Of a stretch of DNA of 64,000 nt, positions 7,960-17,161 are shown piece after piece. Source of the DNA: an uncultured Candidatus Saccharibacteria bacterium. Its GTDB lineage: Bacteria; Patescibacteriota; Minisyncoccia; Phycocordibacterales; CSBR16-119. The notes beneath the pieces were generated by a model that made no database searches, was not told where the DNA came from, and worked only from the letters and a program-made list of their open reading frames with translations. The stretch is from contig CAZHCS010000001.1 of the NCBI GenBank assembly GCA_964531475.1, forward strand, positions 14,712 through 78,711, read 5' to 3'. Made by a program: the position numbers and the translations under genes. Position 1 is the first letter of the stretch. Each line of letters begins with the position of its first letter.

Positions 7960-8220
7960 ATGAAATCAGTCAGCATTTATACGACTCCAACCTGCCATTT
8001 TTGCCAGATGGCCAAAGAATTTTTCAAGGCAAATGGTGTCGAATATAGCGAGTACAATGTTGCCGGTGACGAGGCGAAGCGCGCCGAGATGATAGAAAAG
8101 TCAGGACAGATGGGTGTGCCGGTTATTTTTGTCGGTGAAGATATGGTTATTGGTTTTAACGAGCCAAAGCTCAAGACACTTCTAGCTGACCAGATGGGCG
8201 GCATGCAGGCCGCAGCCTAA
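7960..8220 (+). CDS. glutaredoxin-like protein (NrdH/Grx family)
   Basis: MKSVSIYTTPTCHFCQ contains a CxxC active site; thioredoxin fold. An extended -10 (TGgTATAAT) lies at 7921-7929. Confidence 0.7.
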   Translation: MKSVSIYTTPTCHFCQMAKEFFKANGVEYSEYNVAGDEAKRAEMIEKSGQMGVPVIFVGEDMVIGFNEPKLKTLLADQMGGMQAAA

Positions 8221-8258
8221 GTGGTCGGAGTGCGGACGATATGCTAGGATGTCCGCGC

Positions 8259-8330
8259 GCCCCCATAGTTCAATGGATAGAACAGTTCCGTCCTAAGGAG
8301 TAGATGTACGTTCGATTCGTACTGGGGGCA
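8259..8330 (+). tRNA. tRNA-Arg(CCT)
   Basis: GCCCCCA/TGGGGGC acceptor, D-arm GTTCAATGGATAGAAC, anticodon loop GTCCTAA (anticodon CCT), T-arm GTACGTTCGATTCGTAC. No CCA encoded. Confidence 0.8.
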
Positions 8331-8375
8331 CACAAGCACAAAATTCCGCGTAAGCGGAATTTTGTGCTTGTGTGC
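8328..8375 (+). other. perfect 22-bp stem hairpin (GTAA loop) overlapping the last 3 nt of tRNA-Arg
   Basis: GCACACAAGCACAAAATTCCGC-GTAA-GCGGAATTTTGTGCTTGTGTGC. No U-tract follows. Confidence 0.7.
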
Positions 8376-8405
8376 CGGCCGCATAAATATGCTAAAATAT
8401 TACCC

Positions 8406-8675
8406 ATGGACGAAAAGGAATTCCGCGATCTGAAGGAGACTGTGCTAGATACGCACAGGATGGTCTCTCGGCTCTATAAATTCGAGAAAAATCGCCGCCT
8501 GTGGCGCGCCTTGAAATTCATTCTCCTAACTGTTATTATCGTTGGGGCGTATTACGCCGCTCTGCCTTTTTTCAAGCGGGTCTTGGATACCTATAACAGT
8601 TTTTCGTCGGGGGTGACGAATATCCAAAACTTCCAATTCCCGTGGCAGAAAGATGCTTCAGCCGAAGCGCAATAA
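8406..8675 (+). CDS. hypothetical small membrane protein
   Basis: 89 aa from MDEKEFRDL, with one predicted transmembrane segment (ILLTVIIVGAYYAALPFF). Confidence 0.4.
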   Translation: MDEKEFRDLKETVLDTHRMVSRLYKFEKNRRLWRALKFILLTVIIVGAYYAALPFFKRVLDTYNSFSSGVTNIQNFQFPWQKDASAEAQ

Positions 8676-8676
8676 T

Positions 8677-8692
8677 ACCAACGCTCAGATAG
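8677..8692 (+). repeat. 16-bp direct repeat ACCAACGCTCAGATAG (copy 1)
   Basis: Identical to 9044-9059. The second copy spans the first 10 nt of tRNA-Phe. Confidence 0.75.
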
Positions 8693-8757
8693 GCCCGACG
8701 CAGGACCGGGTCCTGGTCGGGCTCCCGACATCCGATTGGCGCAATCGGATCGTCGGG
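8693..8757 (+). other. two consecutive strong hairpins sharing CCCGAC/GTCGGG arms
   Basis: GCCCGACGCAGGACCGGGTCCTGGTCGGGC, then CCCGAC-ATCCGATTG-gcg-CAATCGGAT-c-GTCGGG. Confidence 0.6.
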
Positions 8758-8789
8758 ACTCAGTACGATTCAATTAAGATATAAGTTGT

Positions 8790-9059
8790 ATGGCTTGGGT
8801 TTACATACTTAGTACTGAATCGGGTAAGTATTACATCGGTAGTACAGAAAATATCACCCAAAGATTGAAACACCATAAAGGTGGGTTCACACCAAGTACT
8901 AAGTCTATGGTGTTTAAAGATTGCCTCCTAACCCAAGAATACCAGACTCTTGGCGAAGCAAGATTGATTGAGAAGAGGCTAAAAAGTTTTAAGCGTCGAG
9001 ATTACATTGAAAAAATAATCAAAGACGGGTATATTAGAATACAACCAACGCTCAGATAG
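8790..9059 (+). CDS. GIY-YIG nuclease family protein (URI-domain, COG2827-like)
   Basis: 89 aa. YILSTESGKYYIGSTENITQRLKHHK is a GIY-YIG motif. The stop codon TAG lies inside the 5' end of tRNA-Phe. Confidence 0.75.
   Translation: MAWVYILSTESGKYYIGSTENITQRLKHHKGGFTPSTKSMVFKDCLLTQEYQTLGEARLIEKRLKSFKRRDYIEKIIKDGYIRIQPTLR
9044..9059 (+). repeat. 16-bp direct repeat ACCAACGCTCAGATAG (copy 2, overlaps tRNA-Phe 5' end)
   Basis: See copy 1 at 8677-8692. Confidence 0.75.
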
Positions 9060-9125
9060 CTCAGTTGGTAGAGCATTCCCCTGAAGAGGGAAGGGTCGCC
9101 AGTTCGAACCTGGCTCTGAGCACCA
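9050..9125 (+). tRNA. tRNA-Phe(GAA)
   Basis: GCTCAGA acceptor, D-arm TAGCTCAGTTGGTAGAGC, anticodon stem TTCCC/GGGAA with loop CTGAAGA (anticodon GAA), T-arm. CCA is encoded. Confidence 0.85.
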
Positions 9126-9130
9126 AAATC

Positions 9131-9160
9131 AAGAAAGGCCTCCATATGGAGGCCTTTCTT
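9131..9160. terminator. perfect palindromic bidirectional terminator
   Basis: AAGAAAGGCCTCC-ATAT-GGAGGCCTTTCTT, between tRNA-Phe (+) and hsp20 (-). Confidence 0.7.
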
Positions 9161-9165
9161 GATGT

Positions 9166-9675
9166 TTATCGTGATTTTACCCTTACCTTCGTCCTTCGTT
9201 TCTTGTCGATCTTTGGCAGACGGATAATGATTAGACCATTTTTTTCGGTTGCGATAGTGGTTTCTGGGTCGATCTCCTCTGGCAGCATAATTGTTCTAGT
9301 GAACGAGCCCCAGTATAGTTCACGGTGTATGTAGTCTCCTTGTTCGGCAATAGAGCCTTCTTTGCGTGATCCTGATATTACCACCATGTCGCGCGAAATG
9401 TCTATGTCCAAATCTTCTGGTTTTACTCCGGCGGCCATAGCCTTGACCACTACTTCGTCCGGTGTCTGGTACACGTCAACGGCTAGTTCGCTCGCGACAT
9501 CTTCGGATTCTTCCCATTCGCGCATACTAAAATCGGTATCTTCTTCGGAAATAGCCAATCGTTTACCGCCGCGTTCTGGCAATGTCGTGTCAGAATTTTC
9601 CGCGTCATCTTCATCCATGTCTCGAAGCGATAGTCCGCCGGTTAATTTTTGAAAAAATGATCTTTTTTTAAACAT
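9166..9675 (-). CDS. Hsp20/alpha-crystallin family small heat-shock protein
   Basis: An alpha-crystallin domain (VDVYQTPDEVVVKAMAAGVKPEDLDIDIS, GSFTRTIMLPEEID) with an acidic N-terminus. Confidence 0.85.
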   Translation of the reverse strand: MFKKRSFFQKLTGGLSLRDMDEDDAENSDTTLPERGGKRLAISEEDTDFSMREWEESEDVASELAVDVYQTPDEVVVKAMAAGVKPEDLDIDISRDMVVISGSRKEGSIAEQGDYIHRELYWGSFTRTIMLPEEIDPETTIATEKNGLIIIRLPKIDKKRRTKVRVKSR

Positions 9676-15726: not shown

Positions 15727-16701
15727 TCAACGTTCTCCTCGTTTTTTTCGAATGAGCTCCATGATCTGATACGCGTTCAGTGCTGCACCCTTGCGTAGGT
15801 TATCCGCGACGATCCACAAGTGTACGCCGTGCTCGCAGCTCTCGTCTCGACGGATACGCCCGATCAAGACCTTGTCGTCACCTACCGTGTTTATAGGCAT
15901 TGGATAGATGTTGTCGCTTGGGTCATCGTGGACAACCACGCCAGGATTAAACGCGAGTTGGCGTTTGATGTTCGGGATATCGAACGAATCTTCGAATTCG
16001 ATATTGACCGACATGCCGTGACAGCGTGGTATAGGTACGCGGACCGCCGTGGCGCTGATGCGCAAATTCTTGTCGCCGAGAATCTTGCGCGTCTCCTTGA
16101 CGATCTTCTCCTCTTCCTTGGTGTAACCGTTTGGGAGAAATTTATCGCAAGCGGGGATGAGGTTTTCGTCAATTTGGAACGGGTACGGACCCTTTGGGCG
16201 CTTGTTGTTGCGTTCGGCCCGAAGCTGCGCGAGCGCTTCTTTACCCGAACCGCTGACGCTTTGGTACGTCGAGACGAGTACGCGTTTGATAGGGAAGATC
16301 TCCCCAATTGGCGCGAGCGCCATGACGAGCTGGGTCGTGGTGCAGTTAGGATTCGCAACGAGCGTTTCGAGGCCGTCCAAGATATCTCCGTTGACCTCGG
16401 GTATCACAAGAGGTACGTGTTCGTCCATACGAAACGCGTCGGACTTGTCGATAATGGTCGATCCGACCGCCCGGAACTGCGGTATGATTTCGTGTGCGGC
16501 GTCGGCGTTGACCGCCAGGAAGACATAGCGGGGTTTCGCCTTTAGGGCCGTCTCGACTGAGACGTAGCCATTGCGGCGGTCGTCCATGTTGCGGGATACG
16601 GCCAGGAAGTCACCGCTTCTGATATAGTGTTCGGACAGGATTCGGCAGAATTCCTTGCCCACCAGGCCGGAGGCGCCTATGACGGCAATGTCGTTTTTCA
16701 T
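15727..16701 (-). CDS. asd: aspartate-semialdehyde dehydrogenase
   Basis: VIGASGLVG NAD-binding motif; STYQSVSGSG contains the catalytic Cys region. 324 aa. Confidence 0.85.
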   Translation of the reverse strand: MKNDIAVIGASGLVGKEFCRILSEHYIRSGDFLAVSRNMDDRRNGYVSVETALKAKPRYVFLAVNADAAHEIIPQFRAVGSTIIDKSDAFRMDEHVPLVIPEVNGDILDGLETLVANPNCTTTQLVMALAPIGEIFPIKRVLVSTYQSVSGSGKEALAQLRAERNNKRPKGPYPFQIDENLIPACDKFLPNGYTKEEEKIVKETRKILGDKNLRISATAVRVPIPRCHGMSVNIEFEDSFDIPNIKRQLAFNPGVVVHDDPSDNIYPMPINTVGDDKVLIGRIRRDESCEHGVHLWIVADNLRKGAALNAYQIMELIRKKRGER

Positions 16702-17039: not shown

Positions 17040-17112
17040 GCGCGGTTAGCTCAGTTGGTAGAGCGACCCCTTGACGTGGGGTAGGCCACAGGTTCGAGTC
17101 CTGTATCGCGCA
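17040..17112 (+). tRNA. tRNA-Val(GAC)
   Basis: GCGCGGT acceptor, D-arm TAGCTCAGTTGGTAGAGC, anticodon stem ACCCC/GGGGT with loop TTGACGT (anticodon GAC), T-arm ACAGGTTCGAGTCCTGT. No CCA encoded. Confidence 0.85.
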
Positions 17113-17161
17113 CACGAGGAGCATCGCGACGAGTGCGCGATAAGCAACAAACTGCTTTTTC
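17105..17161 (+). terminator. hairpin including the tRNA-Val 3' acceptor strand, plus a weak terminator
   Basis: ATCGCGCAC...GTGCGCGAT (9 bp), then AGCA-acaaac-TGCT followed by TTTTT. Confidence 0.45.

Follow-up and report, generated by a model that had tools for sequence, protein, structure and literature searches.

Islands and prophages that depend on a tyrosine integrase insert in a transfer RNA (tRNA) gene, which is restored by a tRNA segment that they carry, and they become flanked by direct repeats of tRNA sequence; in fungal mitochondria, free-standing open reading frames (ORFs) of the GIY-YIG or LAGLIDADG type are fused in frame to, or abut, the end of a host gene and bring a replacement terminus, the displaced original being left to decay. 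By analogy, the closest experimentally studied counterpart of the locus described here is SegB, a phage protein much larger than 89 amino acids and equipped with a separate DNA-binding region. This GIY-YIG homing endonuclease of phage T4/T6 is encoded in tRNA clusters, recognises a 27-bp site and a conserved TpsiC motif and cuts inside tRNA genes, and break repair spreads its gene together with the tRNA genes beside it (PMC2330249); its homologues are statistically linked to tRNAs of many isotypes and drive tandem tRNA-segB duplication by microhomology that the 5' end of the tRNA shares with the 3' end of segB (PMC13096335). In the Candidate Phyla Radiation (CPR, Patescibacteria), GIY-YIG ORFs were found sparsely in non-intron intervening sequences of rRNA genes, possibly outside homing (PMC11270868), and the tRNA introns are of group I, 184-894 bp long and located elsewhere in the tRNA (PMC13011429). 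The present work concerns a 64-kb stretch of DNA from an uncultured Candidatus Saccharibacteria bacterium (contig CAZHCS010000001.1), the whole of which is called the window below, where a pair of hairpins and the gene of an 89-amino-acid GIY-YIG nuclease stand inserted at a tRNA-Phe gene. The insertion looks like an undescribed small mobile element, a free-standing, homing-endonuclease-like occupant of tRNA genes; a full-text literature search gave no description of GIY-YIG genes, tRNAs and hairpins together in Patescibacteria, and the two CPR studies just cited (PMC11270868, PMC13011429) do not cover the element.

On balance, comparative sequence data make it probable that the segment is a small selfish insertion element which resides in tRNA genes and spreads by nuclease-triggered, homing-like recombination. 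An earlier, sequence-only reading of the window had reported a 16-bp direct repeat, and it was confirmed that the 16-mer ACCAACGCTCAGATAG occurs exactly twice in the 64 kb, at 8677-8692 and 9044-9059; no further copy appeared when up to two mismatches were allowed, the chance expectation being 0.04 matches. The repeat could be widened to 22 nucleotides (nt), 20 of them identical (8671-8692 versus 9038-9059), with a start-to-start spacing of 367 nt. As the same reading had stated, the second copy comprises the last codons and the stop of the GIY-YIG ORF as well as the first 10 nt of tRNA-Phe, the stop codon TAG (9057-9059) being nt 8-10 of the tRNA (U8-A9-G10). It had been overlooked that the D-arm of the tRNA (CTCAGT) resumes past both hairpins: in the window 8 of 8 bases before and 6 of 6 bases after the hairpins match the tRNA, with the junction at 10/11. 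Since CTCAGT is nt 11-16 of the tRNA, the left repeat is a displaced tRNA 5' piece which was split at nt 10/11. The features of the locus are the following.

8406..8675, + strand: upstream host gene, a small membrane-like ORF of 89 amino acids without Pfam hit, used as synteny marker in the empty/filled comparison
8671..8692, + strand: left direct repeat with the exact 16-nt core 8677-8692, made of the native tRNA-Phe leader (..ATACCAAC) and a displaced copy of tRNA-Phe nt 1-10 (8683-8692)
8693..8722, + strand: hairpin 1, GCCCGAC-G-(CAGGACC..GGTCCTG)-GTCGGGC, recognized by folding, with an equivalent in nearly all family loci
8723..8758, + strand: hairpin 2, TCCCGAC-(ATCCGATTG..CAATCGGAT)-C-GTCGGGA, directly abutting hairpin 1
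8759..8764, + strand: CTCAGT, copy of tRNA-Phe nt 11-16 by sequence match, the D-arm resuming past the hairpins
8790..9059, + strand: gene of the 89-amino-acid minimal GIY-YIG nuclease of UPF0213 / bacterial Slx1-like type, an ORF that reads into the tRNA and has no stop codon of its own
9007..9035, + strand: promoter-like TTGAAA-N17-TATATT (10/12 matches) inside the conserved C-terminal coding region, candidate promoter of the displaced tRNA
9038..9059, + strand: right direct repeat with core 9044-9059, comprising the final ORF codons, the TAG stop, the leader copy and tRNA nt 1-10
9050..9125, + strand: intact tRNA-Phe(gaa), detected by ARAGORN and Rfam (tRNA, 70.4 bits)
9128..9163, + strand: terminator-like hairpin closing the transcription unit
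8693..9059, + strand: whole inserted segment, 367 bp, with the junction set at tRNA nt 10/11 from empty L089 versus filled L100

The inserted segment contains, in this order, the hairpin pair, the short D-arm fragment, the GIY-YIG ORF, a leader copy and tRNA nt 1-10. Leader and nt 1-10 stand for the second time at its end, therefore a complete tRNA is rebuilt at the 3' end, and the original 5' piece of the tRNA stays upstream as the left repeat. If the junction is set within the repeat instead, the equivalent span is 8677-9043. The G+C content of the GIY-YIG gene is about 38% versus about 48-50% in the flanks. The two hairpins with CCCGAC/GTCGGG arms, formerly placed at 8693-8757, are real (the RNA fold of 8671-8800 has -58.2 kcal/mol, z = -6.0 versus shuffles), but the second one ends at 8758; beyond the earlier description, they could be recognized as a conserved part of the element. 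Inspection of the ORFs and Pfam matches in the 367-bp segment revealed no tyrosine or serine recombinase and no DDE, HUH, Ser or Tyr transposase; the GIY-YIG gene is the sole ORF, so the previous statement that integrase and transposase are missing was correct. The Rfam scan of 8200-9300 returned two tRNAs and sub-threshold noise only, with no family for the hairpins, and no group I or group II intron family of Rfam was met at the locus at E<=1; the functional tRNA-Phe is uninterrupted.

The search for empty sites, proposed along with the sequence-only reading, was successful. A metagenome scan with the first 48 nt of the window tRNA-Phe gave 23 contigs (contigs and loci bear L numbers here), seven of which have the upstream small ORF in common with L012/L014; among the seven, four have an empty site (L083, L089, L099, L102) and three a filled one (L100, L101, L103). 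The other 16 contigs have the same tRNA-Phe elsewhere without the element, or their upstream part is too short to tell (L090, L091). Homologues of the 8406-8675 ORF precede tRNA-Phe or the element in L012, L014, L083, L089, L099, L100, L102, L109 and L110. The empty site of L089 reads ...cgacttttatgtactaaataccaac|GCTCAGATAGCTCAG..., and the filled L100 has the L089 sequence through ...taccaacGCTCAGATAG, that is ...ATACCAAC-GCTCAGATAG, where hairpin 1 begins; at the far end of L100 the ORF tail ...TCCTTACCAAC gives way to the complete tRNA. The insertion is exact, and it lies after tRNA nt 10 or, equivalently, anywhere in the 17-nt repeat TACCAACGCTCAGATAG, in which ACCAAC is native leader; likewise, ATACCAAC is the native leader at empty sites. 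The suggestion of a small nuclease element at the 5' end of tRNA-Phe was right concerning the insertion, evident against the empty alleles, but the point of insertion lies inside the gene (nt 10/11) and not upstream of it. Independent assemblies (L109, L110, L100, L012, L014) have equal structure, which rules out an assembly artefact.

Signs of movement were searched in the same set of contigs and in the wider family. L100 and L089 have about 93% identity over the approximately 87 nt before the tRNA, as estimated by eye, and 76.5% over 400 nt. Among L012, L014 and L100 the identity is 72-77% in the 400 nt upstream, 82-89% in the GIY ORFs and 79-94% in the hairpin regions, and the flank of the filled L100 is closest to that of the empty L102 (83%); this contrast of element and flank could also arise from stronger selection on the element or from repeated loss. 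At six loci the left copy is unlike the local tRNA but identical to the 5' end of an intact tRNA that another genome has for this amino acid, e.g. the left copy of L001 corresponds to the tRNA-Thr(ggt) of L002. In L036, L023, L077, L059 and L029 the functional tRNA has downstream of it a 3' remnant, interrupted by hairpins, that belongs to another allele of this tRNA, and the 38-nt repeat of L040 includes the 3' end of an older GIY ORF. Judged from these sequences, the loci with foreign left copies and remnants look like records of repeated invasion and tRNA replacement.

Two simple views of the left repeat had to be rejected. It is not a strictly required part of the element: the left copy is deleted in L012 and L103, the left leader of L014 has lost 10 nt, and the ORFs are intact in all of them. 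A simple target-site duplication of fixed length was ruled out by repeats of 10-38 nt. From the former proposal of a target-derived or attachment-site-like repeat, the part concerning repeats of tRNA sequence could be kept, and the tRNA is restored, but the variable lengths do not fit a target-site duplication with fixed stagger.

The module proved to be widespread, as the check for further copies of hairpins plus GIY-YIG gene showed by finding it beside many different tRNAs. The family comprises approximately 100 homologues of 86-89 amino acids, and 80 genome loci were collected by means of the family profile; the organism-named homologues (about nine) and nearly all 80 loci belong to Patescibacteria. 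In almost every locus a tRNA gene on the same strand starts a few bases from the ORF end, and about 12 kinds of tRNA are involved: Thr (with three anticodons), Phe, Val, Arg, Ile, Met, Asn, Lys, His and Ala. Among about 77 loci, 33 end their ORF with the TAG at tRNA nt 8-10, and most others have the stop 0-7 nt before tRNA +1. About 40 of 60 loci contain an exact repeat of the tRNA 5' end (10-38 nt) at a distance of 50-115 nt upstream of the ATG; the longest upstream match to the tRNA 5' end has a mean length of 11.5 nt versus about 7 nt in control regions. The order of the upstream module is conserved, i.e. tRNA nt 1-k, hairpin 1, hairpin 2, D-arm continuation of the same tRNA, 5-30 nt and the ATG. 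About 27 loci including the window are split at k = 10/11, about 17 at 15/16, three at 22/23 and a few Arg loci at 7/8; for the His-linked elements a split at 34/35, in the anticodon, was judged by eye from the upstream sequences, where the scripted assignment gave none. Of the two repeat boundaries the right one is fixed by class and the left one is variable. The split position goes with the nuclease clade in the tree, also where the tRNA types differ. Nearest neighbours on this tree have the same tRNA amino acid in 32 of 59 cases (9.6 expected by permutation); pairs of sisters located at different tRNAs are common as well, and the genes linked to Phe form a polyphyletic set. The ORF is intact in approximately 77 of the 80 loci, and equal architecture occurs in more than 60 independent assemblies.

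Two side observations belong to this survey. In the His-linked L070, L078 and L079 (about 2900-2990) the left tRNA-His copy is interrupted by the hairpin pair in its anticodon, after nt 34, and the acceptor stem of this copy in L070 is GTGGGCG versus GTGCCCG in the functional tRNA-His. In a Yanofskybacteria contig (L053:3255-3328) ARAGORN labels the GIY-adjacent tRNA as tRNA-Stop with anticodon TTA, which may be a suppressor-like tRNA or a miscall.

The hairpins were compared in 137 distinct pairs, in which the cores CCGAC and GTCGG are invariant; the family forms are NNCCGAC-G...GTCGGNN for hairpin 1 and NNCCGAC...C-GTCGGNN for hairpin 2. The two outer base pairs of the stems are Watson-Crick in 473 of 548 cases and G-T in 32 more, with at least five pair combinations, i.e. 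they covary. The pair is dyad-symmetric, its facing cores are 4 nt apart, and the loops at some loci enclose further hairpins of this type. Within the 80 loci 63 pairs stand just 5' of a GIY ORF, eight are ORF-less and directly upstream of a tRNA, eight are just downstream of a tRNA, and the remaining ones are mostly in tRNA fragments, too. A pattern search for the hairpin arms gave eight matches in the window, only two of which (8695-8756) are genuine hairpins, the others being in coding sequence (16463-16505 inspected). Dispersed palindromes of the repetitive extragenic palindromic or miniature inverted-repeat transposable element type were ruled out by the single genuine pair of the window and by the almost exclusive location of pairs elsewhere in tRNA fragments. 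The hairpin pair could not be interpreted as a spliceable tRNA intron either: its in silico removal restored one full-length tRNA only, the tRNA-Ile of L013, which has an intact copy nearby, thus the interrupted tRNA copies are fragments and not split functional genes. In this sole case among the 80 loci (L013:3252-3380) a full-length tRNA-Ile(tat), broken only by the hairpin pair at nt 10/11 and detectable by ARAGORN once the hairpins are removed, directly follows the GIY ORF, and the intact tRNA-Ile(tat) (2915-2990) stands before the ORF.

Units without ORF were seen in L002:3270-3600, where two hairpin units with a common post-hairpin sequence of about 26 nt (TTTGTGTAGAGTAGAGTTGATAAAT) precede tRNA-Thr(ggt) and tRNA-Thr(cgt), the left piece of each matching its own tRNA; by their sequence they look like copies of a non-autonomous derivative. 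The T-arm stem GTCGG...CCGAC of some tRNA-Thr genes (L010:3380-3400, L040:3295-3320) consists of the hairpin-core pentamers in the opposite order. Mirror-image layouts were found with more distant relatives of the nuclease (about 41-43% identity) in L105:331-830 and L104:1330-1900, where an intact tRNA (Leu-gag or Lys-ttt) is followed by the GIY ORF and a 3' copy of that tRNA in which a short perfect hairpin replaces the anticodon arm. The hairpin of L105, TCCCGAC-tga-GTCGGGA, has the arms of hairpin 2 of the window, and that of L104 is different (CCCCGAA..TTCGGGG). L104 has two tandem ORFs, and its D-arm GGTAGAGC provides the TAG at which the ORF stops; the neighbouring gene encodes a cytochrome c assembly protein, so the host of L104 is perhaps not a Patescibacterium.

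The protein itself matches the GIY-YIG family of Pfam (PF01541) with E 2.8e-9 and 37.6 bits (cut-off 22.6). Y5, Y15, G17, R25, H29 and E61, which include the catalytic GIY Tyr, YIG Tyr, Arg, His and Glu, do not vary among 38 sequences. A profile search of solved structures returned the UPF0213 proteins BH0048 (1zg2, E 1.3e-10) and EF2693 (1ywl, 6.8e-8), then Slx1, UvrC-N and I-TevI; the AlphaFold model (predicted local distance difference test score 86) has the alpha/beta GIY-YIG fold, and its top Foldseek matches rank as in the sequence search (1zg2, 1ywl, Slx1, UvrC-N). From its sequence it is plausible that the protein is a catalytically competent minimal GIY-YIG domain of the bacterial Slx1-like branch. 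Purifying selection acts on the ORF, as 25 synonymous and 3 non-synonymous codon differences separate L014 from L100. The PHROG and NCBIfam collections gave weak homing-endonuclease matches only, a scan of viral contigs for phage carriage gave three weak matches, none of them family members, and no exact copy of the window protein was on record in the contig look-up. A minimal GIY-YIG variant without auxiliary domains is how the UPF0213 or prokaryotic Slx1-like branch has been described, and the selfish GIY-YIG enzymes were derived from the UvrC-like lineage (PMC1564403); for this reason a selfish-looking member of the Slx1-like branch is unusual.

Concerning expression, the promoter-like motif embedded in the ORF has the family form TTGA(A/G)A-N17-TA(T/C)ATT, lies in the coding region for ..YIEKIIKDGYI.., reaches at least 9/12 matches in 42 of 59 loci, its end lying 8-24 nt ahead of tRNA +1. 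The Ile codon of YIEK, which gives the TT of TTGA, is ATT in 44 of 49 cases versus 47% ATT overall, and this bias points to selection at the DNA level. In the L089/L100 group there is a promoter-like TTGATT-N17-TAAAAT upstream of the left copy (found by eye, not by scanning). The conserved sequences suggest that the native tRNA promoter would now drive the leader, tRNA 1-10, the hairpins and the ORF, and that the element probably supplies, inside the 3' end of its ORF, a promoter for the tRNA which was separated from its own. Since the ORF stop lies inside the tRNA, processing of a read-through transcript by RNase P would leave a non-stop messenger RNA, which, as a speculation, may limit the expression of the nuclease.

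In the lineage of the window itself the element shows a more settled picture. The closest homologues, L109 (79% amino acid identity) and L110 (78%), have the same context as the window, i.e. small ORF stop, 7 nt, left copy, hairpins, GIY and tRNA-Phe; L012/L014 are syntenic with the window through glutaredoxin, tRNA-Arg, small ORF, element, tRNA-Phe and Hsp20. No empty allele for the sub-lineage of the window was found among the relatives recovered, and the element may be fixed and vertically inherited here. The scenario that had been named as refuting mobility, all relatives alike by vertical descent, therefore holds locally, with the nearest relatives L109/L110 occupied at the same place, but not generally, given the empty sites elsewhere. 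In L110 the tRNA start is GCTCAGGTAG and the left copy is also GCTCAGGTAG (G7), and in the window and L109 both copies are GCTCAGATAG (A7), with differing left leaders; as the copies match their own tRNA, the left copy tracks the tRNA, be it by re-invasion, conversion or selection. As a side observation, a perfect 23-bp inverted repeat with a 4-nt loop (window 8327-8376) overlaps the last five bases of the tRNA-Arg(cct) (8259-8331) and runs 45 nt past it, the next ORF (8406-8675) beginning 30 nt after it; it is probably a terminator or processing hairpin.

In the favoured mechanism the 89-amino-acid nuclease would break an unoccupied copy of the same tRNA gene, in or beside the gene, in another genome, and recombinational repair from the occupied copy would bring in the element, which amounts to homing with co-conversion and might sometimes replace the whole tRNA. 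The hairpin pair would mark the position of the break or junction, and it is probably a structure or sequence recognised by the minimal nuclease; its role could be that of a recognition structure or that of disrupting the site. Homing could account for the frequent start of the repeat exactly at tRNA +1, because homology between diverged genomes would end there, and co-conversion would explain the differing left and right alleles and the accumulating displaced remnants. A number of observations speak against this mechanism. The protein consists of the catalytic domain only (the Pfam match covers residues 1-70 of 89, and no extra domain is present in the model) and has no DNA-binding domain, which classical GIY-YIG homing enzymes, among them I-TevI and SegB, need for their long specific site. 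A simple D-arm cutter would have no self-immunity, since the rebuilt tRNA keeps an intact D-arm; the tRNA-Val(gac) at window 17040-17113 has the same D-arm (TAGCTCAGTTGGTAGAGC) as tRNA-Phe and is unoccupied, so the D-arm alone does not determine occupancy. At different tRNA types both repeat copies and the post-hairpin fragment match the local tRNA, hence copying driven by homology alone would fail for the first insertion into a new tRNA type. The repeat length varies between 10 and 38 nt; there is no sign of recent intragenomic jumps, because paralogues in the same genome are divergent (L002/L042, L013/L074); and the nearest relatives of the window are all occupied, with a host-gene-like divergence that would agree with long vertical inheritance.

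The first insertion into a new tRNA type is the point where a transposon-like or integrative element comes into consideration, a possible but rather doubtful alternative on the whole: two target-matching copies and a matching D-arm fragment at new tRNA types favour a step similar to transposition or circle integration. The duplication would then be truly target-derived and the nuclease would act on the hairpin pair as the element end, either with staggered breaks, one of them at a fixed position in the D-arm, the other at tRNA +1 or upstream of it, or through a circle with the junction tRNA 1-10, hairpins, 11-24 that recombines within nt 1-10. The agreement of both repeat copies with the local tRNA extends to sister elements at different tRNAs (L066 Phe/L073 Thr; L020 Ile/L038 Val), G7 or A7 is shared by tRNA and left copy in L110 on the one hand and in the window and L109 on the other, and native leader often belongs to the repeats, which measure 17 nt in L100 and 16-22 nt in the window. 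The dyad symmetry and the fixed 4-nt spacing of the CCGAC cores would suit a protein-binding end, the short ORF-less copies at the two tRNA-Thr genes of L002 resemble non-autonomous derivatives, and a single circle crossover formally yields both the window arrangement and the mirror arrangement of L104/L105. However, the segment has no transposase or recombinase, we know of no GIY-YIG protein that catalyses strand transfer, the hairpins are at one end only, and the repeat length is inconstant; the post-hairpin D-arm fragment also matches the local tRNA, unlike in a plain target-site duplication, and the left copy that is a different tRNA allele in several loci fits better to co-conversion.

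The settled state in the window lineage could also be read as that of a domesticated or host module which is not mobile at present, where a Slx1/UPF0213-like host gene is co-expressed with tRNAs, and repeats and hairpins are leader, regulatory sequence or old scars. The largely intact ORFs under purifying selection, the same arrangement in the window, L109, L110 and L012/L014 at host-like divergence, the embedded promoter-like motif and tight ORF-tRNA junction, which resemble an integrated expression unit, and the bacterial UPF0213 proteins, presumed housekeeping, as nearest solved structures would agree with it. We consider it unlikely, in view of the presence or absence among close relatives with an exact junction, the greater likeness of element than of flanks between genomes, the displaced tRNA piece at each locus across about 12 tRNA types, the stacked remnants and replaced tRNA alleles, and a G+C content below that of the flanks. 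Even less credit is due to a guide- or structure-directed nuclease, in which a pseudo-tRNA transcript or single-stranded DNA would pair with the tRNA gene, the hairpins would bulge at the cut position and the Slx1-like nuclease would cleave the junction. It would explain how a protein too small to read a long site, the closest characterised relatives of which are structure-specific Slx1 enzymes, finds its target; on either side of the hairpins the sequence agrees with the target tRNA and changes with it from one tRNA type to another, and the hairpin position is the insertion position and is inherited with the nuclease clade. This evidence is purely circumstantial, the left copy is deleted in L012/L103 with the ORF intact and has mismatches to the local tRNA in several loci, there is no Rfam match, and to our knowledge no RNA-guided GIY-YIG enzyme has been described. 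A chance repeat or an assembly artefact beside an ordinary gene, for which nothing but the shortness of the repeat speaks, was ruled out for practical purposes by the 0.04 expected matches, by the same architecture in more than 60 independent assemblies, by the duplication of tRNA 5' ends in the family and by the empty/filled comparison.

The preferred reading as a homing-like selfish element would account for hundreds of anonymous 86-89-amino-acid genes of Patescibacteria annotated as 'GIY-YIG nuclease family protein', which are found exactly at tRNA 5' ends. Essential and often single-copy tRNA genes of reduced genomes would be recurrent landing sites for a tiny element, and the host would survive since the tRNA is rebuilt and its promoter is apparently supplied by the element. 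The pseudo-tRNA fragments and hairpin-interrupted tRNA copies can be missed or misread by annotation tools. If it is true that the hairpin/pseudo-tRNA module guides the nuclease, this would be a very compact site-directed nuclease system. As a tentative proposal, the bare GIY-YIG domain of Slx1-like type and the dyad-symmetric hairpin pair in a pseudo-tRNA might represent an unrecognised class of tRNA-gene-specific mobile elements, with targeting through nucleic-acid structure or pairing, a target-derived duplication that rebuilds the tRNA, hairpin-only derivatives and mirror variants at the 3' parts of tRNAs. There is a real chance that the targeting chemistry of the element is new.

Compared with the known systems, the element shares with SegB a GIY-YIG gene among tRNA genes of many isotypes, and it would carry the association of SegB with tRNAs, recently described for phages, over to cellular genomes and to the Slx1-like branch, which was regarded as non-selfish. 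In contrast to the phage enzyme with its TpsiC region, we have here an 89-amino-acid bare Slx1/UPF0213 domain in cellular Patescibacteria and a junction in the D-arm or 5' part of the tRNA, and unlike in SegB the stop codon is shared with the tRNA, a conserved hairpin pair and a displaced tRNA piece are present, and derivatives without ORF exist. The UPF0213/Slx1-like proteins BH0048 (1zg2) and EF2693 (1ywl) are the best match in sequence and fold and have the same single-domain size, but no mobile behaviour is known and no tRNA or hairpin context was described for them. Direct repeats of tRNA sequence and a restored tRNA are common with the tRNA-targeting integrative elements, which have, however, an integrase, span kilobases and usually occupy the 3' half of the tRNA, whereas our element has no integrase, a length of 367 bp, a 5' D-arm position and a variable repeat. 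The mitochondrial ORFs differ in their protein-coding organelle targets, in the absence of a hairpin module and in their larger enzymes. The rRNA insertions of CPR bacteria occur in the same phylum and in structural RNA genes as well, but they interrupt the rRNA, whereas at the loci described here the tRNA is rebuilt, and the element is widespread and has a fixed architecture.

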